Shown: positions 18,275 to 37,646, counted from the first letter of the stretch. The stretch is 64,000 nt of DNA from Bacteroidota bacterium (GCA_013289475.1 JABCZW010000002.1:12265-76264); one strand, 5' to 3'. Numbers and translations: made by a program. Notes: a model not told the origin generated them from the letters alone.

Positions 18275-19312
18275 ATGAAAAGAATCTCTTTAATGACTGT
18301 AGTTTCGGCTATAATAATGGCAATAGTTAGTAGCGGCTGTAAAGACAGGTATGTTGAAAAAATGAATTATACTTTTGTGGTTGCTGGCGATGACAGGGTT
18401 GCTCCTGAAGATACCGCAGGGAATCCGAGTACCATAAATATATACCATTTCAAACGCCTACTTGCAGAAGTAGCTCAACTCAGCCCTTTACCTAAATATT
18501 TGTTCTTTAATGGCGATTTGGTGTTGGGCTATACAGGCCATGATACTGTTAAACTGGCAAACGAACTAAGGGCTTGGATAAAGTTGTATAAAGAATCCCC
18601 TTTAGCTTCAAGTGGTGTGGAGCTGGTTGCCATACCCGGTAACCATGAGATTGTAGAAAAAGAAGGTTCAGGGAAAATAGCATTTGTAACAAATGAGAGA
18701 ATATTTGTGAGAGAGATGCATGATTACATACGGGGCGATAATGGCCCAAAAGCTACAGGCTTTGTTCCGGGAACAGATAGCTTATGGACAGATCAAAGCA
18801 GATTATCTTATTCATTTGACTTTGGAGGAGATCATTTTGTTATACTTAGCACCGATGCAGTAGCCCGTGAGAGCCGTATATCATGGCACTGGTTAAAAAA
18901 TGATTTAAAAGATGCTCATGAGAATGGTGCAAGGCATATATTCCTTTTTGGGCATAAACCTCCATTCCCGTCTCATTACGAATCTGAATCAGGTATGGAA
19001 GAGTTTAAAGCCAGTCGGGATAGTATGTGGGCCGTAATTGAAAAATATAATTGCGATGCTTATTTTGGATCTCATTTCCATTTATGGGATTCTGTGCAGA
19101 TGCACAAAGGCAAAACATGGGAAATAGTTTGCGGTAATTCGGGTGCACCAATGGGAAAAGACTGGCCACAAAGTTATTATGGTTATACAATTGTTGGTGT
19201 TTCTGATAAAGTTGATATTACAAGCATGGGCCATGATGTGGATAAGGAGCATTATACGGCTCCTACGCCTGATAAACCAACCACAGTACGCGCCAAGTTT
19301 ACTATTCAATAA
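18275..19312 (+). CDS. Calcineurin-like metallophosphoesterase lipoprotein
   Basis: 345-aa ORF. Lipobox AIVSSGC. MPE motifs VVAGDDRV, NGDLVLG, IPGNHE, LFGHKPP, GSHFHLW. Confidence 0.8.
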   Translation: MKRISLMTVVSAIIMAIVSSGCKDRYVEKMNYTFVVAGDDRVAPEDTAGNPSTINIYHFKRLLAEVAQLSPLPKYLFFNGDLVLGYTGHDTVKLANELRAWIKLYKESPLASSGVELVAIPGNHEIVEKEGSGKIAFVTNERIFVREMHDYIRGDNGPKATGFVPGTDSLWTDQSRLSYSFDFGGDHFVILSTDAVARESRISWHWLKNDLKDAHENGARHIFLFGHKPPFPSHYESESGMEEFKASRDSMWAVIEKYNCDAYFGSHFHLWDSVQMHKGKTWEIVCGNSGAPMGKDWPQSYYGYTIVGVSDKVDITSMGHDVDKEHYTAPTPDKPTTVRAKFTIQ

Positions 19313-19677
19313 CTTGGTTGTTGAGGTGCAACTGAATAGTGCTAACCCTATTTAAGGATTGTTAATACACGAATTTCTTTATCCTTATAAGGATATTATA
19401 TGAATGTTCTTTCATGAATATCTTATATGTCCTTATAAATTTTTCAATCAATATAAGGCGACAGATCACTTCGTCGTAGTTTCTATTAACTGATAGAAAG
19501 CCTTTATTTGTAGGATGCATTTAGATAAGAGACTGTAGTGTATTGAAAATAATATTTCACCCCTTATATAGTCACAGTAATGACTTAACAATAAATAACT
19601 GCCATCCTTTACATAAATAATTAACCCCTGCTCTTTGAGCAAGGGTTAATATGATTCAATAAAAGAGGTTAAATATA

Positions 19678-21168
19678 CTAGTGTGCGTTACCTGTACCGC
19701 TGCTTTGGTAACAGCCAATATCAACACCTGGTTGAGTTATGGTAGGGGCGAAATTTGGATTAGTCACATCATTTTTAACAGGGTTAGGTATATTTTGGAA
19801 TGGACTGAAGCCAACATATCCGGCACCAATTGCAGGAGAACCTGGTTTTAAATGAAAATCGTAGTTGCTTCCGGTAACAGATACGCCTGTTTCAAGAGAA
19901 CTTATGGCCGATAATGTTTGCCCGCCTGGAATGGGTTCAGGAAGCGGGAAATTAACAAACATTGGATTGTTTACACCGGCTAAACTTGGGTCGTTGTAAG
20001 CAAGGTCATCCCCACCATTTACAGTGCTGTTCGGGCTATAAAAACCCGCTGGCAGGTTAAGCTGGGCTGCGGAAGGAATAATGTATGCATTAGGCCTTGT
20101 CCATGTTCCTGCAGTAACCGGGAAAAACTGATTAACTTCAGATACTGAGTCAGAATAAATATAGTTGTTGGTATAAATTGTATTTGTTGTATCAGGCATA
20201 GGAATAGAGTTCTGTCCATCTCCAATACGAATACCATTACGACAATTTACAATAAGGTTATTGTAACATAAACCTCTTCCGCCTTGTTCATAGTCAATAT
20301 CTGAGCCACGGCTTGAAGGAGATGCTTGTCTGTAACCGCAATCTATATATGTATTGTTATACATATTAATGTTACACTGAACAAAAGACCCCGAACCTTT
20401 GTCTGAGCATTTAGTTGAGTTGGTGGCATTGCCTACACATAGGTTATAACACATGTCTCCTTGTGTTCCATGCTTTGCATTAACTCCATCCCCACCTAAA
20501 TAACCCATTTTTTCAAGAGTGTTACGAGCAATATAAATACGCCCCTGCTGAATGCGTATGCAATCATCCACAGAACCATATATCCAGCTATCAGTTATTA
20601 TTAAATCACCTTTAGGGTTTTGGAATAACACGCTAAATGAAGTTCCGCCTGAAGTGCCGCCAACAAATGGTTCAGTTGTGGCAAAGGTTCCGCCTGTAAA
20701 TTCAACATGTGTCCATTGCAGTTCGCATAAGGTGCATGATGTATCACAGTTGATTCCTGTCCACTTGCCTGAGTATGCAGGGTCGCTGGTAACAGGGTTG
20801 CCTATCTGATCAATTTTTGTAACTCCGCAAGCTGTAAACGAGTTAGGAGCAGCTTGCGTTCCGAGAGATATAAGAACACCTTTCACAATAATGGTTACAC
20901 CCGCACCTACACAAACGGTTACACCGGATTGAAGTAAAACGGTATCCCCTTTATTGATAGTAAAATCGCCGGTAAGTGTGTAGGTATTTCCAGAGGTCAT
21001 AGTTCCTTTGTATGAACCTGCCGATAAATTACCTGGGCTTATAGTTTGGCCTACCTGGAATGGAGGCGTGGAAACTACCGTTTTTTCAGTAGTGGCATTC
21101 TTTTTACAAGAAGGCAGCAGTGCAATTGCAGCTGCCAGCAATCCAAGAAGTAGAGAGTTCTTTTTCAT
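19678..21168 (-). CDS. Lipoprotein with right-handed parallel beta-helix-like repeats, partner of the upstream TonB-dependent receptor
   Basis: Start moved to MKKNSLLLGLLAAAIALLPSC (ATG at 21168), because a -7 promoter box lies inside the longer ORF. Repeated N/G/C-rich turns (CYNLCVGNATN, CNINMYNNTYIDCG, CYNNLIVNCRNGIRIGDG). Confidence 0.55.
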   Translation of the reverse strand: MKKNSLLLGLLAAAIALLPSCKKNATTEKTVVSTPPFQVGQTISPGNLSAGSYKGTMTSGNTYTLTGDFTINKGDTVLLQSGVTVCVGAGVTIIVKGVLISLGTQAAPNSFTACGVTKIDQIGNPVTSDPAYSGKWTGINCDTSCTLCELQWTHVEFTGGTFATTEPFVGGTSGGTSFSVLFQNPKGDLIITDSWIYGSVDDCIRIQQGRIYIARNTLEKMGYLGGDGVNAKHGTQGDMCYNLCVGNATNSTKCSDKGSGSFVQCNINMYNNTYIDCGYRQASPSSRGSDIDYEQGGRGLCYNNLIVNCRNGIRIGDGQNSIPMPDTTNTIYTNNYIYSDSVSEVNQFFPVTAGTWTRPNAYIIPSAAQLNLPAGFYSPNSTVNGGDDLAYNDPSLAGVNNPMFVNFPLPEPIPGGQTLSAISSLETGVSVTGSNYDFHLKPGSPAIGAGYVGFSPFQNIPNPVKNDVTNPNFAPTITQPGVDIGCYQSSGTGNAH

Positions 21169-21194
21169 TTTTTTAATTCGATTTAGATTTTGCG

Positions 21195-21202
21195 CAAAAC
21201 TA
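21195..21202 (-). promoter_or_regulatory. Candidate -7 box TAGTTTTG inside the shared motif AAAATAGTTTTGCGCAAA
   Basis: Minus-strand TAGTTTTG is a perfect TAnnTTTG, 26 nt upstream of the ATG at 21168. An almost identical motif lies upstream of the TBDR gene at 24195-24202. Confidence 0.45.
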
Positions 21203-21360
21203 TTTTCCACGTAACACGCGAGTATTATCGGCTGATTAAATAATCGTTAAAATAAATTGGCGGGATTAAGAGAATGTTAAGACCGAACATTTAATTATCT
21301 TTTATAGTATTAAGGCCACCGCAAGTGGTGCATTGTTACTTTTTATAAGATATAAAAACT

Positions 21361-24177
21361 TTAAAATTTATATCTTAAGCCCATCAAATATGTTTGACCA
21401 TAGTATTCCTTTTGCACCACTATACTATTTAAACTGGTGTTGTTGTCTTGATTCGGAAGCCATGCTGAAGTGCCGGGTATATTGGCATAGTTACTGGGTG
21501 GAAACATACGAATTACCAGCGGTGTATTTAGTATATTATTTACTTTTCCATACAGACTTAAGTTTATTTTCTTACTCAATCTTTTTTGAAAAGAGAATCC
21601 CATTGTAGTCATAGGCATCTGCCATTCATCAAGGCCATAATATTGGGCAATAAGGTAGACTGATTTACCTGTATAAACTAATGAAAGTTGTGCTTCAAAG
21701 CCTATGTTTGGGTTTTTATATATAAAAGAAAGATTTGCTATATTATCTACTTGTCCTTGTATTGGCCTTGTTTCAGTTGTATCAAAAGTTTTTGGCTGCC
21801 CGGTACCAACCGTATTGCGGTATATTAATTCAGGAGCGACAAGGCTGGAATGGGTGTAGGTGTAATTAGCAGATATTCCAAAATGCTTGATGTATTTAGT
21901 AATTGTGAATTCAAAACCATAGTTAATGGCAGGAACTGTATCACCGCCTATATTTATAGGTTGCTGAATTACAGCAGAAGGGCCGCCTGATGGAGAATGG
22001 ATTACTGCTTGCTCAATAGGGCCATATATTTGTTTGTAAAATACTCCAATCAATATTTGGTCTGAAGGTTTTGGGAAAAATTCATAACGCAAATCATAAT
22101 TATTGGCTGTTGTATGGAGTAAATAAGGGTTCCCATATTGATTGAATTGGTCCCCGCTTAGTTGATACGGCACTATATCAATAAAACTTGGTCGTGATAT
22201 AGATGCAAAGTAACTTGCATGTATAGCTTGTTTATCTGTTATATTATATTTAACCTCAACACTGGGCAGGTAGTCTGTATATTGTTTGGTTCCATTTTGG
22301 GCCACTACATTAATTGATTCGCCATCTACATAAGCTTGAGATGTGTTTTCAATTCGCATTCCACCGGCTAATTCTATTTTAGACAATAACTGTAACTTAA
22401 TCATACCATAATAAGCCGTTATATCTTCACCAACGCTGTACGAGTTATTGCTCATGGGTGTACCCAGTGGATTTACGAACACATAATAAGAAGGATTAGC
22501 CAAAATAGCATCTATGCCAGGATAATTTGGCTGAAAGGGAGTGGCTGCAAAATCATATTCATTTGAATAAGCATTTCTTGTTTTATCTCTATTCATTGCT
22601 CCTGTTTTTAATTCAACTTTTTGTCCGAATAAGTTAAAATGATAGGATAGATTAATATAGCCACTAAAATCCTGATCGGTACTTTGCATCCATACTCTTG
22701 AAAGTGAAGAAAAAACTGCTGTTGGCTGGCCCATGGTACCAAGAAGCGAAATGTCGTCCCAGTCAGGTATGTTTTCCCATGCGCGTGAATATGCGCCCGT
22801 CCAGTCAAGAAATAAATTATGGGCAAGCGTATCCTTACCTTTTAAAGTGGCATTAAATATATATTGTGAAGTAACCTTAGATTGATAATGAGGATTCATC
22901 TCACTGCCAGGTAATGAATTAGCCGTATCCTGTTCAATGCGCGAACGAATATCATTCATTTGGGTATAAACAGCATAAAAATCCATCCTGTGTTTAGGGC
23001 TAAATACATAATCAATTTTTAAATGTCCGGCCCCTCTAGTTTGCTGCTCCCAATAATCGCGGTTTGATACATAATCCCAAATTGGAGTATTTGGGTGCGG
23101 ACCGGGGTTTGGTTCTGATTGCTGTTTTATCCAAAATCCTTCGGTAGCGCTATAAATATTTTGAAAATTAGCCGATAACAATATACCTAGTCTTCCACCC
23201 AAAAATCTGTCGCCAAGAGTAAAGCCCGCAACCAGGTTTGGCGGAACAGCAACATCCTTATAGTTAATGTTTCCTGTTGGGAAATCAGAAACTTTTGCTG
23301 CATAATCTGAGCCATTTGTTTGAGCCGGACTATTGGTTTGTATGACACTCGAATTAAATTTCTCATATCCCTGGTTAAGTAAAGTTTGGTTAAACCCGGT
23401 CGCAAAGTCGGCAGAGAGATAAAATCTGTCAGGTGCATCTTTTAATACAAGGTTCATAGCTCCGCCAATGGCATTGGCTTCCATATCAGGTGTAAGGGTT
23501 TTGAAAACTTCCAGGCGTTCTACCATTTCGGCAGGAAATAGATCCATAGGTATATACCTGTTCCCATAGTCGGGGCTGGGTATCTGTACTCCGTCAATAG
23601 TTGTGTAATTATAATTTTTGTCCATTCCTCGTATGGTGGCATATTTTCCCCCTCCTGTTGTTGATTTTTCGACACTTACGCCAGATACCCGCTGTAATAC
23701 ATCTCCTATTGTCAAATCAGGCAACAATTGTATTGTCTTTGCCGACATTACGTTCATTAAAATATCTGAATTTTTTTCCTCACTTCTGGCATAGTTATCT
23801 GATTCTTTGGTATAGTTACTTGTTATAGTTACATTGCTTAAATTAATATGTGCCTCATTCATCTGGAAGTCTATTGTTATTACCTGGCTCTCATCTGATA
23901 TAGTAATTGTTTTTTCCTGTGTGGTATAACCGAAAAATTGGGCAACAAGTATATACGTGCCACGTTTTAAATTTTTTATGGAATAAGAACCATCCAGCCC
24001 TGCACCATCATGAATGCTGATACTATCTTTAACATAAACAGTAGCTCCTATAAGCCCTTCTTTACTTGCCGAATCTGCAACTTTACCTTTTACTGTGCCC
24101 GCTTGCACCAGCGATACAGAAACTATAAGTGTAATGAAACTCAGCAGGAAGCAGAATGAATATTTTTTACTTGTCAT
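21361..24177 (-). CDS. TonB-dependent outer-membrane receptor with N-terminal carboxypeptidase-regulatory-like domain
   Basis: Start moved to MTSKKYSFCFLLSFITLIVSVSLVQA (ATG at 24177). GTVKGKVADSASKEGLIGATVYV (CarbopepD_reg-like), plug region DVLQRVSGVSV...ATIRGMD, long beta-barrel ending ...MGLRYKF (terminal aromatic). Confidence 0.85.
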   Translation of the reverse strand: MTSKKYSFCFLLSFITLIVSVSLVQAGTVKGKVADSASKEGLIGATVYVKDSISIHDGAGLDGSYSIKNLKRGTYILVAQFFGYTTQEKTITISDESQVITIDFQMNEAHINLSNVTITSNYTKESDNYARSEEKNSDILMNVMSAKTIQLLPDLTIGDVLQRVSGVSVEKSTTGGGKYATIRGMDKNYNYTTIDGVQIPSPDYGNRYIPMDLFPAEMVERLEVFKTLTPDMEANAIGGAMNLVLKDAPDRFYLSADFATGFNQTLLNQGYEKFNSSVIQTNSPAQTNGSDYAAKVSDFPTGNINYKDVAVPPNLVAGFTLGDRFLGGRLGILLSANFQNIYSATEGFWIKQQSEPNPGPHPNTPIWDYVSNRDYWEQQTRGAGHLKIDYVFSPKHRMDFYAVYTQMNDIRSRIEQDTANSLPGSEMNPHYQSKVTSQYIFNATLKGKDTLAHNLFLDWTGAYSRAWENIPDWDDISLLGTMGQPTAVFSSLSRVWMQSTDQDFSGYINLSYHFNLFGQKVELKTGAMNRDKTRNAYSNEYDFAATPFQPNYPGIDAILANPSYYVFVNPLGTPMSNNSYSVGEDITAYYGMIKLQLLSKIELAGGMRIENTSQAYVDGESINVVAQNGTKQYTDYLPSVEVKYNITDKQAIHASYFASISRPSFIDIVPYQLSGDQFNQYGNPYLLHTTANNYDLRYEFFPKPSDQILIGVFYKQIYGPIEQAVIHSPSGGPSAVIQQPINIGGDTVPAINYGFEFTITKYIKHFGISANYTYTHSSLVAPELIYRNTVGTGQPKTFDTTETRPIQGQVDNIANLSFIYKNPNIGFEAQLSLVYTGKSVYLIAQYYGLDEWQMPMTTMGFSFQKRLSKKINLSLYGKVNNILNTPLVIRMFPPSNYANIPGTSAWLPNQDNNTSLNSIVVQKEYYGQTYLMGLRYKF

Positions 24178-24194
24178 ATAAACTAATTTGCGCG

Positions 24195-24202
24195 CAAAAC
24201 TA
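24195..24202 (-). promoter_or_regulatory. Candidate -7 box TAGTTTTG inside the shared motif AAAATAGTTTTGCGCGCAAA
   Basis: Minus-strand TAGTTTTG, 17 nt upstream of the ATG at 24177. It lies within the N-terminal extension of the ORF-track call, which supports the shorter start. Confidence 0.45.
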
Positions 24203-24332
24203 TTTTTATATGGTACTGTAAATAAGAATGAGTAGTTGATATAATAATTAAATAACAATTTTAACCTTTACTTAACTCCAACTGCACGGTAATCAGAAAT
24301 AATTAACCATGAAATAAGATTGTATTCATAAA

Positions 24333-25703: not shown

Positions 25704-25931
25704 AGGTTGGATTTATTGCCTCGTCATTTGTTTTGAGATACAAACATAATTTCCTGGTAACCATGTAACGCGTGTAGTTTATTTTCTTAACGGAAATTTA
25801 ATAAACCGGAAGATAATTCTTCATATATCAATTGAATTAATAGATCGATGTGAGGATTATTTAACAAGCGAATAACATTAAGCTAATGGTATAATAATAT
25901 TATTGTTCCTTTAAAAAATAGGGCATTTTAA

Positions 25932-28900
25932 ATGAGAATAATTTTTAGTACGAGAGCTATCTTTTTTCTGATTCTCTTTGGACTATCTTCTTTATACAGT
26001 GGGGCGCAGCCGAGAAAACTTATTCATTTTTGGGATTTTAATAGTACTACTCCGTTAACTGGTGTTGGAGATGCCGGAGGTAATGGCGATAGTCTCGGAA
26101 ATAGTAAGCATGGCTTACCGGTGCAGTATACTACCTTACCGCTAAGTGGAGCTAAAATAGTTTATGTGCGTCCTGCCACTAAACAAGGTGTTGCAACAAA
26201 AGTTGATAGTGTTTTAGATAATGATATTTCAGGTTCATTTTACTACGATTTCAGCAGTGTTAACTATCCTTATTTTAAAACCAGTGATAGTTCTGCTGCC
26301 GCAGCTGCATGTTCCTGCAATGGTAATTTAAGCATAAGGGCACGTAATCCTTCGCTTAATTCATACTTATATATGTATGTTCCTACTACAGGGTATATGA
26401 ATGTTTCGTTATCATACGCAGCAAGTGTGTCAAGTATAAAAGGTGCCCAGTATAATATATTTTCATACAGCACCAATGGTGGTGCTACATGGAACAACCT
26501 TACCCAGGCTATGGATACTTTTAATATAGGTGGTATACGTAGGCCTGATACATTACTTGTATTAAATTCTGTAACCAGCACAAGGGCATGGTACCCGGTA
26601 AATATTAATTTTTCGCCAGACAATAGTGCTAATAACAATAATAGTTTTATTATAAGATTCTATTTGGCAGGTTCTAACTCAACTACAAATACCGGAAGCG
26701 ACAGGTATGATAATATTGCAATACGCGGAGATAGTGTATGCCCTGTACTCTGGGTGCAACCTGTTAATTCGGCAATTTGCCCCGGATCAAATACCAGTTT
26801 TGTTACACATGTGGCCGGCGGGCTAAGTAATTTGTTTCAATGGCAAGTAAATAATGGAGGTGGATTTACTAATATCAGTAATGGAGGGGTATATAGTGGA
26901 GCCATTACCGATAGCCTTGCTTTAAGCAATGTTCCTGTTTCCATGAGTGGATATCAATACCGCTGTATAATATCATGCCCTACTTGTAATAATGATACAT
27001 CGGTCGCTGCAACTTTATCATTTAAACCGGCCCCAGTTGTTAAGGCTAACACTACCACAGATACTATTTGTATTGGCAATAATATTACCCTTACCGGAAG
27101 TGGTGCCATAAGTTATACATGGACAGGAGGGGTAAATAATGGAATTGCATTTGTGCCTGCCTTAACCAACACTTACACGGTTACAGGAATGGCAGCTGAC
27201 GGATGCACAGATACAGCAAGTATAAGGATAAAGGTCAATACACTGCCCCCGGTAAAAGCTAGTACTACAAATGATTCTGCATGTGCTGGCAATGCCGTTA
27301 CGTTAACCGGAAGCGGAGCAAAAACCTATGTTTGGACAGGAGGCATAACGGATGGTATAGCATTTGTTCCTGCTATTACGCAAACATACACGGTTATTGG
27401 GAAGGATAGTAATGGTTGTGTTAATAAGGATAGTATTAAGATTATAGTAAATCCGTTACCCGTTATTAGCATATCTCCTTCTTCCGCTAATATTTGTTAT
27501 GGAAATAATACCTCTTTAACTGCATCAGGTACAAATACTTTTTTATGGTCTCCGTCAGTAGGGTTAAGCTGCACCAATTGCCCCAATCCTATTGCTGATC
27601 CTGTTATTACAACAACGTATACAATTACAGGTATAAGTAAATCGGGCTGCCCCGACTCCACCACAGTGGTCATAAACGTGGCTCCTAAAATAAATGCATC
27701 AATTAGTGGAAAGGATACAATTTGTTTAGGTACATATACTACACTCATTGCCTCGGGCGGAAATACCTATTTATGGAATACCGGTGCAACGTCGACATCT
27801 GTTAATGTCAGTCCGGCAATAGATACAATATACAGCATAAAAGCTATTGTGGGCGGTTGCTCTGATAGTGCTAAAGTGTTTGTAACCGTTAATCCGGTTC
27901 CTGTTGCAGTAATAACCGGAAATAATTCAATATGTTTTGGCAACAATTCATTACTTACCGCATCAGGTGGTAGCAATTATGTTTGGAATACAGGTGTATC
28001 AACGGACACGGTATCCGTAATGCCTTTAGTAACAACAACATATTCTGTAAATGTAAGTAATGGACTATGCACAAAAGATACAAGTATAATTGTTGTAGTG
28101 CATCCAATACCTATAGTTACCATTACCCGACCTCAGGCTATTTGCTTTAACGATTCAATAATAATTAACGCAAGCGGCGGAAATAGTTATTTGTGGAATA
28201 CAGGAAACACTAATTCGGATTTTGGTGTCAGCCCTATGGTTACTACTACTTATACTGTTACAGTAAGTAATGGATTTTGTAGTAAAGATACGACCACCGT
28301 AATAAGTGTGAATCCATTGCCTGCAACAAACATAATGGGTAATAATGCAATATGTTCAGGTGACACTACGTTACTGACTGGCGGAGGCGGTGTAAGTTAT
28401 AAATGGAATACGGGCAGTACAAGTACTTCAATTTCTGTTTCACCTAACATAACAACTACGTATACTTTGCAGGCAAGTAATGGGGTATGTACTAAAAATG
28501 CAACCATAACAGTTAATGTAACACCTACACCGGTTCCTGATGTTAGCGCAGAGCAATCAATTTGTATTGGTGGTTCTGCTAAGCTTTCAGCTTCGGGTGC
28601 AACATCATATACATGGACTCCCGCGGTTGGGCTTAGTTCTTCAACTATTTCCAATCCTTTTGCAAGCCCTGGTATAAGCACAACTTACACGGTTGTTGAG
28701 GCTAATGGCCTTTGCACTGCTAAGGATAGTATAATTGTAATTGTAAACCCGTTGCCTGTCGAAGCGGCTTCTCCGAATACAAGTATTGTAATCGGGCAAT
28801 CAACTCCACTATCTGTTGCACCTCAAACAAGTGGCAGTATATATGAATGGTCTCCTTCTTCAACGTTAAGTTGTTCTAATTGCCCTGATCCAATTGCAAG

Positions 28901-29267
28901 CCCTTTGGTAACTACAACATATTATTTAATTACCATTAACGGATTTGGTTGTACAACAGAAGATACTGTTACTATTGATGTAAGTGACGATTGTGGGCAC
29001 ATATTTGTTCCCAATATGTTTTCGCCCAATGGCGATGGGCATAATGATGAATTGTTGGTATTTGGGTATTGCGTTAAAGAAATGGATTTTATAATATATG
29101 ACAGGTGGGGGAATAAGATTTTTGAATCGACGAAACAAAGTGATGGATGGGATGGAACATATAAGGGCGAAAGGATGAATCCGGGAGTATATGCGTATTA
29201 CCTGAGTGCTGATTTGTTAGATGGAACCAAAATAAATAAAAGTGGCAATGTTGCTTTGGTCAGATAA
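25932..29267 (+). CDS. Large surface protein: unnamed N-terminal module, Ig-like domain, about 9 cysteine-bracketed Ig-like repeats, and a gliding-motility-associated (CHU_C, T9SS type-B) C-terminal domain
   Basis: 1111-aa ORF. Signal peptide ...SLYSGAQP. Module LIHFWDFN...DRYDNIAIRG (aa ~25-270). Repeats of the form C.G....L.ASGG..Y.WNTG.....I.V.P...TTY.V.....C..D....V.V.P.P. C-terminus FVPNMFSPNGDGHNDELLVFG...WDGTYKGERMNPGVYAYYL is the type-B CTD. Confidence 0.85.
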   Translation: MRIIFSTRAIFFLILFGLSSLYSGAQPRKLIHFWDFNSTTPLTGVGDAGGNGDSLGNSKHGLPVQYTTLPLSGAKIVYVRPATKQGVATKVDSVLDNDISGSFYYDFSSVNYPYFKTSDSSAAAAACSCNGNLSIRARNPSLNSYLYMYVPTTGYMNVSLSYAASVSSIKGAQYNIFSYSTNGGATWNNLTQAMDTFNIGGIRRPDTLLVLNSVTSTRAWYPVNINFSPDNSANNNNSFIIRFYLAGSNSTTNTGSDRYDNIAIRGDSVCPVLWVQPVNSAICPGSNTSFVTHVAGGLSNLFQWQVNNGGGFTNISNGGVYSGAITDSLALSNVPVSMSGYQYRCIISCPTCNNDTSVAATLSFKPAPVVKANTTTDTICIGNNITLTGSGAISYTWTGGVNNGIAFVPALTNTYTVTGMAADGCTDTASIRIKVNTLPPVKASTTNDSACAGNAVTLTGSGAKTYVWTGGITDGIAFVPAITQTYTVIGKDSNGCVNKDSIKIIVNPLPVISISPSSANICYGNNTSLTASGTNTFLWSPSVGLSCTNCPNPIADPVITTTYTITGISKSGCPDSTTVVINVAPKINASISGKDTICLGTYTTLIASGGNTYLWNTGATSTSVNVSPAIDTIYSIKAIVGGCSDSAKVFVTVNPVPVAVITGNNSICFGNNSLLTASGGSNYVWNTGVSTDTVSVMPLVTTTYSVNVSNGLCTKDTSIIVVVHPIPIVTITRPQAICFNDSIIINASGGNSYLWNTGNTNSDFGVSPMVTTTYTVTVSNGFCSKDTTTVISVNPLPATNIMGNNAICSGDTTLLTGGGGVSYKWNTGSTSTSISVSPNITTTYTLQASNGVCTKNATITVNVTPTPVPDVSAEQSICIGGSAKLSASGATSYTWTPAVGLSSSTISNPFASPGISTTYTVVEANGLCTAKDSIIVIVNPLPVEAASPNTSIVIGQSTPLSVAPQTSGSIYEWSPSSTLSCSNCPDPIASPLVTTTYYLITINGFGCTTEDTVTIDVSDDCGHIFVPNMFSPNGDGHNDELLVFGYCVKEMDFIIYDRWGNKIFESTKQSDGWDGTYKGERMNPGVYAYYLSADLLDGTKINKSGNVALVR

Positions 29268-29288
29268 ATAATATTATAAAAATTGAAA

Positions 29289-30344
29289 ATGCAGATCGTT
29301 AGTTCATATTTCGAAAAGTTACTTTGCAGGTTGACAATAGTATTGTTTTGGTTATCTATGGGTAATAAAACAAATGCACAGGATTTACATTTTTCGCAAT
29401 TTACTGAATCACCGCTTACCTTAAACCCAGCGTTATGTGGAACATTCAATGGTAATGTTTTAGCTGAAATTAATTATCGTAATCAATGGTCGAGTGTAAT
29501 GGGTAGTGGAAATGGGTTTAATACTATGGGTGCAACAGCAGAGTTTCATAATATATTTAAAAATTGGACAAAGGGTTATCTTTCTCCGGGTCTTTCTTTT
29601 TTTAGCGATAAATCTGGTGACGTAAAAATGGGAACAACTGAAGTTGCCCTTACATTATCAAGTGGAATATTTTTAAGTAGTAAGAGTAATGTTTCTGTCG
29701 GTTTGCAGGGTGCCTGGGCTCAGCAGAGTATAAATAATGGGGCAGGGCAGTGGGGCGAACAATTCTTAGATGGTAGCTATGACCCAAGTGCTTCTACAGG
29801 AGAACCTTCAATTGGAAATTCAATTTCTTATGCAGATTTTTCCGGTGGAGTGAACTATAAATATAGCTCCGGTGAAGTAGACTTAAAAAATAATAATGAA
29901 TTTAAAATGGATTTTGGCGCAGCCATATTTCACATCAATCAACCCAACATATCATATTACAGAACAAGTTCTCAGGGGTCATTGTTATATATGCGTTATA
30001 TTATTCATGGCAACTTTCAGTGTGGCGTGCAACGGTTACCTATAAGTCTTATACCCGGTTTTGTATACTATATGCAGGGCCCGTCTCAAGAATTAAACAC
30101 AGGTATAAAGATCAGGTATTATGTGCTACAGGCTGATGAAAGCAAATACACCGGCTTTAAAAAAGGCGGTAATGCTTTTGACCTTGGCGTGTATTATCGT
30201 TGGAATGATTCAATGATATTTTTATTAGGCATGAAAATGAGAGATTATACAATGGGAATAAGCTACGATATAAATGTATCTGAGCTAAACGTTGCTTCTT
30301 CCGGTAGGGGTGCAATTGAATTGTCGCTGAAATATATTCAGTAG
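29289..30344 (+). CDS. PorP/SprF-family type IX secretion system membrane protein
   Basis: AQDLHFSQFTESPLTLNPALCG is the family's N-terminal signature. The rest has beta-barrel-like composition. It sits immediately downstream of a type-B CTD cargo gene. The ATG at 29289 is preferred over the TTG at 29283. Confidence 0.85.
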   Translation: MQIVSSYFEKLLCRLTIVLFWLSMGNKTNAQDLHFSQFTESPLTLNPALCGTFNGNVLAEINYRNQWSSVMGSGNGFNTMGATAEFHNIFKNWTKGYLSPGLSFFSDKSGDVKMGTTEVALTLSSGIFLSSKSNVSVGLQGAWAQQSINNGAGQWGEQFLDGSYDPSASTGEPSIGNSISYADFSGGVNYKYSSGEVDLKNNNEFKMDFGAAIFHINQPNISYYRTSSQGSLLYMRYIIHGNFQCGVQRLPISLIPGFVYYMQGPSQELNTGIKIRYYVLQADESKYTGFKKGGNAFDLGVYYRWNDSMIFLLGMKMRDYTMGISYDINVSELNVASSGRGAIELSLKYIQ

Positions 30345-30504
30345 TCATAGGGTATTTATAAATAAATTACCATTCCCTTTACTTGAATTTAACATTGTCA
30401 TGGAATTTGGTTTCAAGTATTAGTAATTAATTAACGTGGCAGTAATATTTTGCTAAAAATGCAAGCGTACTCTTGCACCAAATTAATTTAATACTATTCC
30501 GATA

Positions 30505-33500
30505 ATGAAAACAAAACTTACTCAAGTAGCAATTGTTTTACTTGCCTTTCTCTTTACTTTACAGGAAAGTAAAGCCCAACAACAATTAATCCATTTTTGG
30601 GATTTTAATCAAACTTACCCATCGGGCGGTGCCGGTGATAGTTTGGGTACCCCATACGCATATGCAAATAGCGGTGCAACATCATGGGGCAATAGCCAGG
30701 TAACATCTGCTGCCGATGCTGCTAAAAAAACGAGTACACTTTTTGCAAATTACTCAAGGTTGCCATTTTCAGCTACCTACGCAAACGATGCAAGGATTTT
30801 GTTTTTACGCCCTACCGCAAAACAAACTGTGCCTTACGCTGCTACCGCAAGGGATAGTATGATAGATAATGGAGCAACTACCGGTTCCTTTATTTATGAC
30901 TACAGTGCCTATAATTATGTTTATAATAATACTTCAGACAGTGCAAGCTCTAATATGTTTGTGAGGACACGTAACCCGGTTGAAAATGCTTATATGTATA
31001 TATATGCGCCAACAACAGGTTTTAATAATGTGAATTTTAATTTTGCCCTTACAGCATCAAGTGCCAGCGGAGCGCAATACCTGCTTTTTAATTATAGTAC
31101 CGATGGGGGCACTACATGGAAAAACTTAACTACTGCCATGGATACATTTAATATAGGCGGTGTAAAAAGGCCTGATACACTTCTTGCTACAAATCCAACA
31201 ACTATTGTAAGCGCATGGTATCCTGTTCAAATGAATTTTACTTCCGATATCTCTGTAAATAACAATCCTAATTTCATCATCAGGGTGGGATTTGGTGGTA
31301 ACAATTCGGCAAAAGGCAGTGGCAATAACCGCTTCGATAATTTTGCAATTCTTGGCGATAGTAATACATCAAATATAGTTTCTTATTTTGTTAACCGTAC
31401 TAATATTCCAAAATGCTACGGAGATAGTACCGGTAGTGCAACTGTGATTACAAAAGGTGGCCTTACTCCTTATACATATTCATGGTCAAATAACGTAAAT
31501 GTAACAGCAACAGGTAAAACTTCAGCTACATGTACTGGTTTAAGTGCTGGTACGTATACAGTAACTGTAACTGACTTTAATGATATTGCCTCAACGGCTG
31601 TTGTTACAATATTACAACCTACCAAAGTTATTCCAACCCTTTCTACTCAAACCAATGTTTTGTGTTATGGTAATACTACCGGTAGTGCTAAGGCTGTTGG
31701 CGCTGGTGGTACCGGGCCATATACTTATTCTTGGTCGTCAGGCGGGGGAACCAGCCAAACAGTAAGTAACCTGGGCCAAGGTGCATATACATGTACTGTA
31801 ACAGATAAACTTGGATGCCCAGGAACTGTAATTGCTAATATAACCCAACCTGCTACGGCAATTACTGCCACTGTAACTACCTCTCCGGTTACATGTTCAA
31901 CTTTTGGCTCTGCAAATACAATTGTTAGCGGAGGTACCCCATATAAAATAGGAAATAGTTATGTATATCATTGGTCAAATGGTGCAGCTACTGCTTCTAT
32001 AGGTGGTCTTGGTACAGGTATAGTGAGCGATACGATTAAAGACTCAAATAAATGTCTTGTTATTGCTACCGGAACAGTTACCACTAGCGGTGCAATTATT
32101 AACCTAACACCTACAGATATTACATGCAATGGTTCAAGTAATGGCGCTATAACATCATCTGTTAGCGGTGGAACTACTCCGTATACATATAGCTGGTCTA
32201 ATTCTGCAACTACAACTTCAGTAAGCGGGTTGGCACCAGGAGGTTATACATTGACCATTACAGAAGGTAATAGCTGTGTATCAAGCGCAAGTACAGTTAT
32301 ATCACAACCTAATGTTTTAAATGATACTGTAGAAAGTGTTACACCTTTAGTTAAGCTTATACATTACTGGGATTTTAACAGCACTCAGCCTATAGGTGGT
32401 GCCGGTGGCGATAGCCTTGGCAATATTGCTAATCCTTTAATTCCTGAGTTTACCACCTTAAGTAGCGCAAACCCGCACATGATTTATTCGCATCCTATTT
32501 CAGGCGGAATTACTGATAATGTTGGCGGCCCTCCATATGCATTTATTAATGATTTACATGCAGCGGGTAACGATACTAATAGCCAATCAACAAATAACGT
32601 GGGTGTGCGTACACGTAACCCTGTGCAGAATTCTTCATTTGTTTGGTATATACCTACTACAGGTTACCAGAATATTATGTTAGACTGGGCACTTTCAGCT
32701 TCCAGTTCGAAAGGAGCACAGTATCTTGTGTTCCATTATAGTACCGACGGTGGCACTTCATGGAACAAACTTACTTCGGTTATGGATACTTTTAATACAG
32801 GAGGTAAAATTCATCCTGATTCTGTTAATGCAATTAACCCTACCACGTCAGCAAGCAATTGGTATCCGGTACATATAGATCTTTCTTCGGTTGCTGCGGC
32901 TAATAATAATCCTAACCTGGTGTTTATGATAAACTATGCAGGTAGCAATGTTACTAACACTAGTGGCAATAATAGGTTTGATAATATCTCTGTTAAAGGC
33001 TCTGAGATACCAAGAGTAACTTGTAACGGCAGTAATAACGGAAGTGGTATTGTAGTAGCGTCAGGCGGAACTACTCCATATGCATTTAGCTGGTCTACCG
33101 GAGAAACCACTGCAACAGTTACTGATCTGCCTCCGGGTACAAGTAGTGTTACGGTTACCGACAAAAATGGCTGCAGCATGATGGCGACGGTTAATGTTAT
33201 TAACCCACCGGTATTAACTAATAGCTTAGTTGTAAATAATGGTTGTAATAATTCAAATAACGGAACTATTACTTCAGTTCCGAGTGGTGGAACAGGGCCA
33301 TATTCTTGGAGTTGGTCTAATACAAGTGCAGGAAGTATGGTTTCCGGCCTTACTCCCGGAAGTTATTCTGTAACTGTAACTGATATTCATGGGTGTATTG
33401 CAACTTCGAGTGTTACCTTAACTAACCCAGCCCTTTTAACAGTAACTCCTGCACCAACAAATATAACTTGCAATGGATTAAATAATGGTCAGGCTGTTGC

Positions 33501-35097
33501 AAACGTTTCAGGAGGCACAACAGGATATACATATAAATGGTATACAACTCCAAGTCAAACTACCCAAACAGCTACTGGGCTCATACCTGGTTTAGATTCT
33601 GTAAAGGTTACCGATGCGGATGGTTGTATTGCAAAGGGCTTTTATACAATTACTCAGCCTGGCCAATTCAGGGATTCTATCAGCTCATCTTCAAATGCGC
33701 TATGTAATGGAGCTAGCGGTAATGCCACTGTAGGAACAAAAGGCGGAACAACACCTTATGCATATTCCTGGTCCGATGGTAATACCAATGCAACTGATAA
33801 TAGTTTAACAGCAGGCACTTATACTGTAACTGTTAATGATGTAAATTTATGCGGACTGCTTACAAGTACTGTGACAATCACCGAGCCTACTGCTATTAGA
33901 GATTCTATAAGCACATCTATAAATGTAATATGTTATGGAGGAATGGGTAATGCAACTGCAGGAATAAAGGGTGGGGTATCACCATATTCATATTCATGGT
34001 CTGATGGTAATTCACAAACAACTGCAACCGCTACCAATCTTACCGCAGGCACATACACTGTAACTATGAGTGATGCAAATTTGTGTGGACCGGTTACATC
34101 GACAGTAACTATTACACAACCTGCCCAATTGAGAGACTCCATTAGTTCATTTGGAAATGTGCTTTGTAACGGGGGGACCGGAAATGCAACTGCGGCTATA
34201 AAGGGTGGCGTATCTCCATACACCTATGCATGGTCTAACGGGGCGTCAACAGCTTCGGTAAGCAGCGTTGCAGCAGGCACTTATACAGTAAGTATAAACG
34301 ATGCAAACTTATGCGGTCCACTTACTTCTACTGTAACTATTACACAACCTGCGCAATTGAGGGATTCTGTTACAGCTGTAGATATTACTGAAGGATGCGT
34401 TGGACAGAATGATGGAAGTGCTTCTGTAAGTATTAAAGGTGGTACAACCGCGTATTCTTATTCATGGAATACAACTCCGGTTCAAACAGCTTCAATAGCT
34501 TCAAACCTTGGTGCAGGTAACTATACAGTGGTAGTAACTGATGCAAATAATTGCGTTGCCAGCGCTAATTTTACAATAAGACCTGATAGTGTTCCTGTAA
34601 TTAATTTTAATTTGGCAGCTGATTCTGTTCAGTGCGATACAGTTAAAGCTGTTTCATTAATTTCCACGGCTACTCCTGCTGGCGGTTCATTTAGCGGCCC
34701 GGGTGTTTCGGCAAATAATTTCCATCCTAAATCGTTGGGGGTTGGTAAATACCTTATTACATACACCTATAGTAATAAGTATGGTTGTCAAAGTTCTGCA
34801 ACACAGGCTATGATAGTAAAATCATGTGTTTTTACGGGCATAGCACAATCAGCAGTAGCAGACAATATTGTTGTATTTCCTAATCCAACCACAGGACAGG
34901 TTAGTATAAATGGGCTTACCATTGGTACAACATTAGAGTTGTATAATGATATTGGTATGCTTGTAAAAACAACAACAGTTAATAGTGAAACTATGCTGCT
35001 CAATATTGCTGACCTGTCTAATGGAGTATATATGATGAGAGTTATTTATAAAGATGGAGCTTCTGTGATTCAGAAAAAGATAATAAAACTCCAATAA
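30505..35097 (+). CDS. Giant SprB-repeat adhesin-like protein with two copies of the unnamed module and a T9SS type-A CTD
   Basis: 1530-aa ORF. Signal peptide ...QESKAQQQ. Module copy 1 at aa ~24-288 and copy 2 encoded at nt 32350-33006. About 15 SprB repeats (C.G..(T/N)G.A......GG..PY.YSWS......GL..G.Y.VTV.D.N.C). C-terminus VFPNPTTGQVSINGL...GVYMMRVIYKDGASVIQKKIIKLQ. Confidence 0.85.
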   Translation: MKTKLTQVAIVLLAFLFTLQESKAQQQLIHFWDFNQTYPSGGAGDSLGTPYAYANSGATSWGNSQVTSAADAAKKTSTLFANYSRLPFSATYANDARILFLRPTAKQTVPYAATARDSMIDNGATTGSFIYDYSAYNYVYNNTSDSASSNMFVRTRNPVENAYMYIYAPTTGFNNVNFNFALTASSASGAQYLLFNYSTDGGTTWKNLTTAMDTFNIGGVKRPDTLLATNPTTIVSAWYPVQMNFTSDISVNNNPNFIIRVGFGGNNSAKGSGNNRFDNFAILGDSNTSNIVSYFVNRTNIPKCYGDSTGSATVITKGGLTPYTYSWSNNVNVTATGKTSATCTGLSAGTYTVTVTDFNDIASTAVVTILQPTKVIPTLSTQTNVLCYGNTTGSAKAVGAGGTGPYTYSWSSGGGTSQTVSNLGQGAYTCTVTDKLGCPGTVIANITQPATAITATVTTSPVTCSTFGSANTIVSGGTPYKIGNSYVYHWSNGAATASIGGLGTGIVSDTIKDSNKCLVIATGTVTTSGAIINLTPTDITCNGSSNGAITSSVSGGTTPYTYSWSNSATTTSVSGLAPGGYTLTITEGNSCVSSASTVISQPNVLNDTVESVTPLVKLIHYWDFNSTQPIGGAGGDSLGNIANPLIPEFTTLSSANPHMIYSHPISGGITDNVGGPPYAFINDLHAAGNDTNSQSTNNVGVRTRNPVQNSSFVWYIPTTGYQNIMLDWALSASSSKGAQYLVFHYSTDGGTSWNKLTSVMDTFNTGGKIHPDSVNAINPTTSASNWYPVHIDLSSVAAANNNPNLVFMINYAGSNVTNTSGNNRFDNISVKGSEIPRVTCNGSNNGSGIVVASGGTTPYAFSWSTGETTATVTDLPPGTSSVTVTDKNGCSMMATVNVINPPVLTNSLVVNNGCNNSNNGTITSVPSGGTGPYSWSWSNTSAGSMVSGLTPGSYSVTVTDIHGCIATSSVTLTNPALLTVTPAPTNITCNGLNNGQAVANVSGGTTGYTYKWYTTPSQTTQTATGLIPGLDSVKVTDADGCIAKGFYTITQPGQFRDSISSSSNALCNGASGNATVGTKGGTTPYAYSWSDGNTNATDNSLTAGTYTVTVNDVNLCGLLTSTVTITEPTAIRDSISTSINVICYGGMGNATAGIKGGVSPYSYSWSDGNSQTTATATNLTAGTYTVTMSDANLCGPVTSTVTITQPAQLRDSISSFGNVLCNGGTGNATAAIKGGVSPYTYAWSNGASTASVSSVAAGTYTVSINDANLCGPLTSTVTITQPAQLRDSVTAVDITEGCVGQNDGSASVSIKGGTTAYSYSWNTTPVQTASIASNLGAGNYTVVVTDANNCVASANFTIRPDSVPVINFNLAADSVQCDTVKAVSLISTATPAGGSFSGPGVSANNFHPKSLGVGKYLITYTYSNKYGCQSSATQAMIVKSCVFTGIAQSAVADNIVVFPNPTTGQVSINGLTIGTTLELYNDIGMLVKTTTVNSETMLLNIADLSNGVYMMRVIYKDGASVIQKKIIKLQ

Positions 35098-35107
35098 GTA
35101 CAAAGTA

Positions 35108-35151
35108 TTAACCGCCCGGTTACCAGCTATAATTTGTAACCGGGTGGTTAA
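35108..35151 (+). terminator. Rho-independent terminator after the SprB-repeat gene
   Basis: ttaaccgcccggttac-N12-gtaaccgggtggttaa. A 16-bp stem with one G:T, followed by ttaatttta. Confidence 0.6.
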
Positions 35152-35250
35152 TTAATTTTAGATTTATTAACATACCACTAATAATGTAATAATATCAATA
35201 CCCTATTCTTGCAGCTTTAATTAACATTCACCTAACAAAAAATCAATTAT

Positions 35251-36264
35251 ATGAAAACAAAAATTACCATCCCTTTAGTATGCGCATTTATTTTATTATT
35301 TTCTTTAAGAGAAGTTAAAGCTCAAACATTAATTCAATATTGGGATTTTAATAATACCCCCCCTGCCGGTGGCGGTGCACACGATAGTCTTGGTAACGTT
35401 ACCAATGCCTTAGTTGCCAACCAGGTATTTGCAGGGCTAACTCCAGGGCATATCATTTATTCACGCCCAAGCGCTCATTTTGGTTCAACCGGTTTGAGAG
35501 ACAGTATATTAGATAATGGTTCAGGTGGTGCTGCATTTTATGATTACAGCAACAGCAACGATACCGGGAGCAGTGCAGCCGGAAACCTGTTTATAAGAGC
35601 GCGTAATCCGTCTGACAGTTGTACGTTTACTATATATGCTCCAACTACAGGGTTTAAGAATATTTCAATGCAATATGCCATTTCTACTTCAAGCTCAGCA
35701 GCAGCTCAATATAATATACTTTCATACAGTACCGATGGAGGTAGTACCTGGAAGAAATTAACTACTGCAATGGATACATTTAATATTGGTGGTGTACGTT
35801 ACCCAGATACATTACAAGTAGAAAATCCAGTTACTGCTGCCAGTGGATGGTATCCTGTTCAAATAAACTTTACAAGCGATCCTGCAGTAAATAATAACCC
35901 AAATTTTGTTTTAAGCTGGATCATTGCGGGTTCTAATTCATCAATAGGCAGCCATAATGACAGGTATGATAATATCGCTGTATGGGGCACTTCTGTAAAT
36001 GGTATTAATGAGTTACCAGCTGAGGCTGCAGGCTATAATGCTTATCCTAACCCGGCAGGAGATATAGTAACCATTGATGGAACATACATAGGTAAAAAAC
36101 TGGTTACAATCTATAACATTCTTGGACAGTCAGTTGTTTCTGTTGCAGATGATAAAAAACAAGTGCCTGTGAATATTTCAAGTTTAACTTCAGGAGTGTA
36201 TTTTGTAAACATTAAAGAAGTAACAACCGGGATAAATTATACACTTAAGCTGGTAAAGAATTGA
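35251..36264 (+). CDS. Minimal member of the module family: signal peptide, unnamed module and T9SS type-A CTD
   Basis: 337-aa ORF. MKTKITIPLVCAFILLFSLREVKAQT. LIQYWDFNNTPP...DRYDNIAVWG. C-terminus AYPNPAGDIVTIDG...GVYFVNIKEVTTGINYTLKLVKN. Confidence 0.75.
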   Translation: MKTKITIPLVCAFILLFSLREVKAQTLIQYWDFNNTPPAGGGAHDSLGNVTNALVANQVFAGLTPGHIIYSRPSAHFGSTGLRDSILDNGSGGAAFYDYSNSNDTGSSAAGNLFIRARNPSDSCTFTIYAPTTGFKNISMQYAISTSSSAAAQYNILSYSTDGGSTWKKLTTAMDTFNIGGVRYPDTLQVENPVTAASGWYPVQINFTSDPAVNNNPNFVLSWIIAGSNSSIGSHNDRYDNIAVWGTSVNGINELPAEAAGYNAYPNPAGDIVTIDGTYIGKKLVTIYNILGQSVVSVADDKKQVPVNISSLTSGVYFVNIKEVTTGINYTLKLVKN

Positions 36265-37636: not shown

Positions 37637-37646
37637 ATAAAATTCT

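Follow-up and report, generated by a model that had tools for sequence, protein, structure and literature searches.

A jelly-roll domain of type IX-secreted proteins that recurs beside phosphate-scavenging genes in Bacteroidota and neighbouring phyla

In a stretch of 64,000 nucleotides (nt) from a Bacteroidota bacterium (GCA_013289475.1, JABCZW010000002.1:12265-76264; the window is this whole 64-kb stretch), three consecutive genes between positions 25,932 and 36,264 encode type IX secretion system (T9SS) cargo proteins over which four copies of one domain, here called the module, of ~220-265 amino acids (aa) each are spread. The module is a previously unnamed autonomous domain with a core of ~170-200 aa, and what is new is its recurrent association with phosphate-scavenging genes across phyla; its fold and role class are already well known. 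We give an even chance to the reading that it acts as a surface-displayed, non-catalytic capture module of a phosphorus-scavenging locus, in which phosphoesterases process the substrate and a TonB-dependent transporter (TBDT) with its lid, or a porin, imports the product. That it would bind rather than catalyse, that its ligand would be phosphorus-related and that its genes would be induced by phosphate starvation is what we infer from the observations below.

A hidden Markov model (HMM) built from a MAFFT alignment of the four copies recovered exactly four domains (E 1e-112 to 1e-121), and no fifth copy, in the six-frame translation of the whole window. The identity to copy 1 is 44-54% and 67 alignment columns are invariant across the four copies, a similarity far beyond chance. 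An earlier note, made from the sequence alone, had placed four copies in three consecutive secreted proteins at coordinates that lie within about 10 nt of the HMM boundaries (Table 1), and the conserved strings that it listed are essentially right, the deviations being AAQY..L for GAQY..F in copy 4 and NNNNSF for NNNPNF in copy 1. Its three architectures were also found by Pfam and NCBIfam, namely Ig-like repeats with a type-B C-terminal domain (CTD) and a PorP/SprF gene (1111-aa protein), SprB repeats (ten of them) with a type-A CTD (1530-aa protein) and a type-A CTD alone (337-aa protein). The type-B CTD of the 1111-aa protein scores 50.5 bits (TIGR04131) and the type-A CTDs of the 1530-aa and 337-aa proteins 32.7 and 45.9 bits, respectively; the module proteins of the window all combine a signal peptide with TIGR04183/PF18962 or TIGR04131/PF13585, the combination by which T9SS cargo was recognized. 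In the AlphaFold2 model of the 337-aa protein the CTD resembles that of mirolase (8qb1, TM 0.77 by Foldseek).

The family to which these copies belong is large. An exhaustive HMMER scan of 1.84 billion representatives, clustered at 50% identity, found at least 659 clusters (659 at E<=1e-3, 347 at E<=1e-10 and 82 at E<=1e-30), while a word-indexed search returned about 120, nearly all of them ~340-aa proteins consisting of the module and a type-A CTD, from metagenome-assembled genomes (MAGs) of uncultured Bacteroidia. Family proteins are 166 to 3630 aa long and carry 1-5 copies each, the first within 60 residues of the N-terminus in 212 of 255 proteins, and the commonest architecture is the minimal one of the 337-aa protein. 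Across the family the module is fused to SprB, Ig_7, Big_2, He_PIG, PKD and FlgD_ig domains, and the giant relatives of up to 3630 aa have five modules and dozens of SprB repeats; the idea that the module sits on interchangeable stalks (SprB, Ig_7, Big_2, He_PIG, PKD) was thus well founded. The proposed link to the T9SS is strong, 157 of the 255 proteins having a CTD (153 type-A, 4 type-B), but it is not exclusive, as about 24 are lipobox lipoproteins, among which is a subfamily of ~390 aa with two tandem ~170-aa modules and no CTD. No anchor was detected in 71 of the 255, mostly fragments. Judged from these sequences, the core of the module is a mobile, repeatable and surface-targeted domain, with predicted export by the T9SS (type-A or type-B CTD) or, in the sister subfamily, by a lipid anchor. 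The copies in the window are larger than the core form because of loop insertions, which are modelled with low confidence.

No Pfam or NCBIfam model reaches its threshold on the module, in line with the earlier note, which could assign it to no named family: no curated model of either database covers it. The sub-threshold profile signals (Reelin_subrepeat-B, Tli3 and BNR/Asp-box) are all centred on YSTDGGxTW. This block follows the canonical Asp-box S-x-D-x-G-x-T-W, as S-T-(D/N)-G-G-x-(T/S)-W in all four copies, and is found once per domain, within a jelly roll rather than a beta-propeller; Y135, S136 and G140 are near-invariant or invariant throughout the family. AlphaFold2, given alignments of 61-62 sequences, modelled the isolated module as an all-beta structure of ~11 strands (predicted local distance difference test (pLDDT) 88.6, predicted template modelling score 0.87) and the whole 337-aa protein with a pLDDT of 87.6. 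A Foldseek search with the two-domain 337-aa model gave misleadingly low template modelling (TM) scores and was redone with the isolated module, for which the best match in PDB was the carbohydrate-binding module (CBM) CBM4-2 1k42 (E 2e-5, target TM 0.60), with further matches to CBM4, CBM11, LAST-MAM, Reelin repeats, the gingipain K1-K3 adhesin domains and the CBM-like Stig cyclases. Identity to every one of these structural matches is at most 15%, and no solved structure found in PDB by Foldseek is a close relative of the module. Sequence searches of PDB with the four-copy profile and with a broader, domain-only profile of 29 sequences sharing <45% identity gave Asp-box-centred matches only (Reelin, sialidases and sortilin). 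According to the model the module is a jelly roll of the CBM/galactose-binding-like type, and the fold class is clear. The earlier impression of a MAM or choice-of-anchor-J jelly roll was therefore correct as to the class (CBM/MAM/cleaved-adhesin, from AlphaFold and Foldseek) but not as to the family, since Pfam MAM (PF00629), Cleaved_Adhesin and the NCBIfam choice-of-anchor-J models gave no match at E<=0.1; nor did any CBM family in Pfam at the same cutoff.

Comparison with the known members of this fold class places the module beside them rather than within one of them. With CBM4 and CBM11 (Rhodothermus marinus CBM4-2 1k42, C. thermocellum CBM4 3k4z and 3p6b, and CBM11 6r3m) it shares the jelly roll (best Foldseek matches, E 2e-5 to 6e-4, target TM 0.42-0.60) and the occurrence as an appended module, single or in tandem, on secreted proteins. 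However, identity is only 8-13% and neither a Pfam nor a PDB sequence match exists, and the module is larger (220-265 versus about 150-190 aa), contains an Asp-box, is not found on any glycoside hydrolase and has phosphatases and phosphate transport rather than carbohydrate-active enzymes (CAZymes) as its context. The MAM and gingipain domains (LAST-MAM 8a28 and gingipain K1/K2/K3 4itc, 3km5 and 3m1h; Foldseek E 3e-4 to 1e-3), the latter likewise modules of T9SS cargo, differ in that TM is only 0.3-0.45 and in that no profile matches. Reelin subrepeat B (PF21471; 2ddu, 3a7q, 5b4x and 7lyu) is also an Asp-box jelly roll (Foldseek E 6e-4 to 8e-4) and is the sole curated profile that touches the module, though this partial match does not imply homology of the whole domain. 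Reelin belongs to the extracellular matrix of eukaryotes and contains EGF modules, and the window copies stay below the PF21471 gathering threshold of 27 bits (26.5 bits for the 1530-aa protein, with two copies summed, 15.2 bits for the 337-aa protein and no match for the 1111-aa protein), with a match that spans only profile positions ~35-97 of 127. Of 72 divergent relatives 25 do match PF21471 (best E 1.4e-11; P0136, for example, with 33.7 bits). Membership of the Reelin subrepeat family was nevertheless rejected: with the broad profile the alignment shrinks to the Asp-box and one flanking strand, which is why the module is not filed there, and in PDB sialidases and sortilin score nearly as high as Reelin.

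The residues conserved throughout the family (W, F-N, R-x-R-N-P, D64, Y-S-x-D-G, N-N and G-N-x-R-x-D-N) include many polar ones, and their conservation persists down to about 25-30% identity. Could the module then be an enzyme on a CBM-like scaffold, for instance a new extracellular phosphoesterase, nuclease or polymer-cleaving enzyme, with the near-invariant Arg, Asp and Asn as an active or metal site? The unusually strong conservation of R-x-R-N-P, D64, Y-S-x-D-G and G-N-x-R-x-D-N would fit, catalysis can occur on CBM-like folds (as in the Stig cyclases, which are among the Foldseek matches), and the module gene comes first in operons that otherwise consist of hydrolases and transporters. 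Still, the structures that match best belong to binding modules without catalytic activity, searches of Pfam, NCBIfam and PDB sequences brought up no hydrolase family, two to five tandem copies per polypeptide on stalks are typical of binding modules rather than enzymes, and dedicated phosphoesterases are already encoded alongside. We consider a catalytic role very unlikely.

The evidence for a role in phosphorus acquisition comes from the neighbourhood of the module genes. We mapped 20 related genomic loci by BLAST against all proteins of the window (these and further loci are numbered with an L below). Module genes co-localise with phosphatases or phosphodiesterases and with phosphate-related outer-membrane transport: partners of this phosphorus type adjoin them in the window and seven close loci, and in 14 of 15 distant loci. 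Homologues of the window partners (43-61% identity) adjoin module genes in L001, L002, L004, L009, L011, L013 and L016. Taken by partner, homologues of the TBDT of the window (35-53%) are found beside module genes in L001, L002, L009, L011, L013, L016, L017 (an unclassified bacterium, where it is the partner), L027 and L028; homologues of a T9SS protein with a divergent domain like that of endonucleases/exonucleases/phosphatases (EEP) in L001, L002, L004, L009, L011, L013, L016 and L026 (two copies); and metallophosphoesterase homologues in L009, L019, L022 and L028, the last three with two each. A beta-helix lipoprotein follows the TBDT in the window, L009, L013, L027, L028 and L032.

The arrangement differs between lineages. 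An Ignavibacteriae MAG (L019) has the two metallophosphoesterases with a lipoprotein, L022 has them with a beta-helix lipoprotein, L028 with a beta-helix lipoprotein and a TBDT, and L023 combines a TBDT, a metallophosphoesterase and a two-component system. In L027 and L032 a single operon runs from the module gene through a TBDT, a Beta_helix_4 lipoprotein and a 426-aa protein to a histidine acid phosphatase (His_Phos_2). In Pedobacter sp. ASV28 (L025, GCA_016428855.1), a Flavobacterium sp. (L029), L030 and Epilithonimonas hominis DSM 22165 (L020, operon at 7158-12015 of NZ_RJTU01000061.1) the operon consists of a lipoprotein with two modules, an SdiA-regulated/phytase-like protein, Porin_O_P and one or more T9SS proteins; L020 and L025 are cultured strains, and in them the T9SS proteins are small. 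L026 and L031 have the porin set plus two EEP-like T9SS proteins. In the lipoproteins of L020 and L025 the lipid-modified Cys is followed by (V/T)-(K/E)-D-R, giving C-(V/T)-(K/E)-D-R, which may be a surface-export signal.

A more mundane explanation is that the module is a generic structural or spacer beta-sandwich, or that it captures a nutrient without phosphorus (a glycan or a metal chelate) for the TBDT, the phosphatases being there by coincidence or by inherited synteny. The fold class is indeed dominated by glycan-binding CBMs, the substrates of such TBDTs are diverse, related MAGs from soil or peat account for most of the loci, and the beta-helix lipoprotein has itself been proposed as a plant-glycan binder (PMC8115612). 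No CAZyme genes were found in the module neighbourhoods, however, and the partners concerned (phosphate-selective porin, histidine acid phosphatase, phytase-like protein and purple-acid-phosphatase-like protein) appear repeatedly, in four gene orders and across Flavobacteriales, Sphingobacteriales, uncultured Bacteroidia and the Ignavibacteriae MAG, that is, across orders and phyla. Because the partners recur in different gene orders in different lineages, this is not the pattern of inherited synteny, and we find the generic or non-phosphorus explanation quite unlikely.

The neighbourhood also bears on the proposal of the earlier note that the locus is a surface recognition or adhesion system. 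In that case the module would be the ligand-binding distal end of mobile adhesins like SprB, as well as of smaller adhesins, serving attachment to surfaces or other cells, and the phosphorus genes would be functionally unlinked neighbours. Two of the three module proteins of the window have long, repeat-rich stalks (ten SprB repeats and Ig_7 repeats, respectively), and the type-B CTD gene is followed by a PorP/SprF-family gene, as in the SprB/SprF system of F. johnsoniae. The giant relatives with five modules and dozens of SprB repeats would fit this explanation as well, and the fold matches include the gingipain haemagglutinin/adhesin domains and a biofilm-associated protein. The likeness to SprB/SprF is limited, in that the SprB repeats of the window go with a type-A CTD and the type-B protein has Ig_7 repeats, and in that most family members are stalkless; SprB itself is not known to have the module at its N-terminus. 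The module does not have PorP/SprF as its partner: PorP/SprF accompanies only the type-B-CTD paralogue (in the window, L001, L002 and L007/L015), as is generally the case for cargo of type B, and is absent beside type-A module genes. Stalkless ~340-aa proteins of module and CTD are the dominant architecture, and one subfamily consists of short lipoproteins. What is kept across orders and phyla is a set of phosphatases, phosphate porin and TBDT with putative lid, not gld or spr genes, and an upstream motif (see below) is common to module genes and the transporter operon. In F. johnsoniae, deletion of Fjoh_3856 and Fjoh_0546 left colony spreading unaffected (PMC7807042), a result that concerns the partners and not the module. 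Adhesion is possible for the giant SprB-repeat versions, but as an account of the family we regard an adhesin head as unlikely; it is more likely that the module serves nutrient capture than that it forms the centre of a novel adhesion system, its cross-phylum neighbourhood being one of phosphorus acquisition rather than gliding or adhesion.

A direct repeat with a periodicity of 11 bp connects the module genes to their partners. In the window TTAACA-N5-nTAACA has two exact matches against 0.15 expected in 64 kb, upstream of the first and the third module gene. The pattern was derived from those same regions and was hence tested on independent loci (~427 kb), where all five exact matches lie 80-270 bp upstream of a module gene, an EEP-like gene or a TBDT gene. 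A weight matrix gave seven further sites, six of them upstream of module or partner genes; of these six, three are 80-86 bp from the start codons of minimal module genes and two precede distant porin-type operons (Flavobacterium sp. and L030). Sites equivalent to that of the window, at 80-86 bp upstream of minimal module genes, were found in L001, L009, L010 and L013. When TTAACA-N5-TTAACA was allowed one mismatch, its count in the window was not enriched over shuffled sequences. Direct repeats spaced by 11 bp are the operator architecture of the OmpR/PhoB family, and the TTAACA repeat resembles the PhoP box of Bacillus, TT(A/T/C)ACA. Co-regulation of module and partner genes through the repeat is supported by these sites. 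A sigma-70 promoter scan of the window gave no excess over shuffled sequence, which is expected for Bacteroidota. Regulators with a LytTR domain are encoded beside module genes in L014 (4842-5585, a response regulator with LytTR), L027 (17871-18365) and L032 (17831-18220), in the latter two as LytTR-only proteins paired with a TPR protein; the window has a response regulator at 54352-55083 with a weak LytTR match (E 2.7e-3).

The gene content of the window recalls clusters described in studies on phosphate starvation. Upon phosphate depletion of F. johnsoniae two clusters, PUSIII and PUSIV, were massively induced (Lidbury et al., ISME J 2020, PMC8115612). PUSIII (Fjoh_3853-3859) contains the TBDT Fjoh_3857, the lipoprotein 'FI' Fjoh_3856 (pectin-lyase type; no exoprotein was more abundant), the proteins with a T9SS secretion domain Fjoh_3855 and Fjoh_3854 (the latter of 30 kDa) and an S41 peptidase, and PUSIV (Fjoh_0541-0549) contains phoBR, OprP, the TBDT Fjoh_0545 and the lipoprotein 'FII' Fjoh_0546 (PMC8115612). 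The beta-helix lipoprotein was modelled on polygalacturonase, and the TBDT-lipoprotein pairs, together with the uncharacterised Fjoh_3855 and Fjoh_3854, are among the genes most strongly induced by phosphate starvation (PMC8115612). The likeness to our loci lies in a CarbopepD_reg/Plug TBDT followed by a beta-helix lipoprotein, in the T9SS-CTD proteins of the cluster and in the OprP porin of the sister cluster; the difference is that a domain such as the module was neither defined nor discussed. BT4056, Fjoh_0546 and Caulobacter ElpS have been proposed as lids of TBDTs, with the transporter-lipoprotein pair adjacent in 621 genera and ElpS regulated by phosphate (Price and Arkin, bioRxiv 10.1101/2023.03.17.533168). 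In gene content the TBDT and lipoprotein of the window are like the transporter-lid pairs BT4055/BT4056 and CCNA_00170/ElpS, and the lipoprotein fits the description of the lid family: it has a lipobox, lies downstream of a non-SusC TBDT and has homologues labelled as beta-helix. In the literature we found no description of the module and no characterisation of Fjoh_3854 or Fjoh_3855.

Together these observations would fit the following scheme, which is analogous to the way in which polysaccharide utilisation loci employ their surface glycan-binding proteins. At the cell surface the module would bind a substrate or particle that contains phosphorus; the minimal protein would display the module there directly, and the long Ig and SprB stalks would place it at their end. 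Phosphoesterases at the surface or in the periplasm would then release small products, in the window the purple-acid-phosphatase-like lipoprotein and the EEP-like T9SS protein and in other genomes a histidine acid phosphatase or a phytase-like protein, and these products would be taken up by the adjacent TBDT and its lid, the beta-helix lipoprotein; in other genomes a phosphate-selective porin would be the entry route. Co-regulation of the genes would take place through the TTAACA-N5-nTAACA direct repeat. We hold only tentatively the wider view that the module marks an unrecognised family of phosphate-starvation surface proteins (T9SS cargo or lipoproteins) of Bacteroidota and neighbouring phyla, which would hand captured phosphorus, e.g. 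phytate, nucleic acid, polyphosphate or mineral-bound phosphate, to phosphoesterases and then to a TBDT with lid or a phosphate porin.

A number of points weigh against the capture of phosphorus by the module. One of the 15 distant loci, that of Flavipsychrobacter (L018), is without a phosphorus-type partner, and so are seven close-clade loci, although in most of these the contig is truncated or giant genes take up the space. A TonB transporter as the single partner is weak evidence, such transporters being common in Bacteroidota. The conserved residues of the module are more invariant than is usual for the binding sites of CBMs and could be structural, Ca-binding or even catalytic. The lipoprotein of the window is likened to Fjoh_0546, BT4056 and ElpS by matching descriptions, not by alignment. 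As to the direct repeat, no Bacteroidota Pho box with which to compare it was found in the published literature, and the LytTR regulators encoded near module genes (L014, L027 and L032) could be the ones that bind it.

The features of the window are listed in Table 1. The module genes are not a self-contained locus: they share a divergent promoter region of 228 bp with a minus-strand operon that encodes the EEP-like T9SS protein, the TBDT and the beta-helix lipoprotein.

Table 1. Module genes, operator-like repeats and neighbouring features of the window (positions in nt from the first letter of the window).
Feature	Position	Strand	Remarks
T9SS type-B cargo, 1111 aa	25932..29267	+	Signal peptide, copy 1 (~26013-26744), Ig-like (Ig_7) repeats, CHU_C/type-B CTD
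PorP/SprF-family outer-membrane protein, 353 aa	29283..30344	+	Pfam PF11751 E 1e-35; TIGR03519 157 bits
T9SS type-A cargo, 1530 aa	30505..35097	+	Copy 2 (~30580-31371), SprB repeats, copy 3 (~32353-33015), more SprB repeats, type-A CTD
Minimal module protein, 337 aa	35251..36264	+	Signal peptide, copy 4 (~35323-36003), type-A CTD
Operator-like direct repeat	25858..25880	+	TTAACAagcgaATAACA; divergent promoter region upstream of first module gene
Operator-like direct repeats	35167..35237	+	Upstream of minimal module gene: TTAACAtaccaCTAATA (35167-35183, one mismatch, 84 bp from ATG) and TTAACAttcacCTAACA (35221-35237)
Terminator-like inverted repeat	35108..35151	+	16-nt arms TTAACCGCCCGGTTAC / GTAACCGGGTGGTTAA, near-perfect, 12-nt loop, then T-rich DNA
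T9SS type-A cargo with divergent EEP-like domain, 456 aa	24333..25703	-	First gene of minus-strand operon; Por_Secre_tail
TBDT with N-terminal CarboxypepD_reg, not SusC type	21361..24258	-	Pfam TonB_dep_Rec_b-barrel, Plug, CarbopepD_reg_2; NCBIfam TonB-Xanth-Caul 285 bits
Beta-helix-family lipoprotein, ~495 aa, putative lid of the TBDT	19678..21210	-	Lipobox LLPSC; homologues labelled beta-helix
Intrinsic-terminator-like hairpin closing minus-strand operon	19620..19650	-	14-bp stem, 6 GC pairs, T-rich tail
Metallophosphoesterase lipoprotein, purple-acid-phosphatase-like	18275..19312	+	Lipobox VSSGC; Pfam Metallophos E 3e-9; PDB 6git E 2.8e-5

On the plus strand the PorP/SprF gene starts 16 nt downstream of the type-B CTD gene and its product is the predicted cognate partner of that protein. 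The inverted repeat that separates the 1530-aa and 337-aa genes was read directly from the sequence; the scan had passed over it because its loop exceeds 8 nt. Directly downstream of the minimal module gene, on the same strand at 36413-39026, lie the genes of an M19 membrane dipeptidase and of another, weaker metallophosphoesterase (459 aa), neither of them conserved beside module genes in the other loci.

In the minus-strand operon, the 456-aa protein is EEP-like, an assignment that is unproven. PF03372 matches 7 of 30 relatives, weakly (best E 1.3e-3), JGI labels two relatives as EEP hydrolases, and the profile of the protein gave nothing significant against PDB; it was kept as EEP-like only, because of this null result and the weakness of the PF03372 matches. 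Its own family, to which Taibaiella soli and Chitinophagaceae contribute members, comprises at least 572 clusters and retains the EEP motifs GDFN and SD.YP, with an invariant Lys ('VKAQ') for the canonical Glu of QEV and 'SDKYP' for SDHxP. The protein may thus have a non-canonical or inactive endonuclease/phosphatase fold. For the TBDT the listed TTG start (24258) is probably too far upstream and an ATG is present at about 24177. Similarly, the GTG start of the 509-aa open reading frame at 19678-21210 is probably wrong, as translation from the ATG at 21168 yields MKKNSLLLGLLAAAIALLPSC, which is a signal peptide typical of lipoproteins. This lipoprotein itself has no match in Pfam, and its homologues carry the labels PF28492 Beta_helix_4 or 'Right handed beta helix'.

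Just past this operon lies the gene of the metallophosphoesterase lipoprotein, whose only sequence relatives in PDB are purple acid phosphatases. A tRNA-Arg(CCT) gene (18004-18076) is located between metG and this gene. The window as a whole is unusually dense in T9SS cargo, with nine CTD genes in 64 kb (3269-5230, 12943-14094, 24333-25703, 25932-36264, 41791-49813 and 52828-54219). Among the cargo are a CTD-bearing S41 peptidase (PUSIII of F. johnsoniae likewise contains an S41 peptidase) and two adjacent giant proteins (1409 and 1262 aa), both with DUF7619 before the CTD. At 50224-51621 on the minus strand a gene joins, unusually, a D-Ala-D-Ala-ligase/ATP-grasp domain to a C-terminal SET domain (Pfam E 5.7e-24 and 1.4e-12, respectively).

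Should the link to phosphorus fail, we would be left with just another new CBM-like domain family on T9SS cargo, of value chiefly for annotation. Bacteroidota are, however, major mobilisers of phosphorus in soil and rhizosphere, and their strongest responses to phosphate starvation include transporter-lipoprotein pairs and T9SS proteins of obscure function. The module family, of at least 659 clusters and without a dedicated database model, travels with such genes, which makes it a testable candidate for the missing step of substrate capture, and tractable material is available in the 337-aa minimal protein, two cultured strains that have the sister operon (Epilithonimonas hominis DSM 22165 and Pedobacter sp. 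ASV28) and the candidate operator. If the wider view is true, it would give a molecular identity to the unexplained 'T9SS-secretion domain' proteins that are induced ~1000-fold by phosphate starvation beside the transporter pair in Flavobacterium johnsoniae, and the surface glycan-binding proteins known from polysaccharide utilisation loci would have in the module a first counterpart specific to phosphorus. The module family would in this way connect type IX secretion with phosphorus acquisition.

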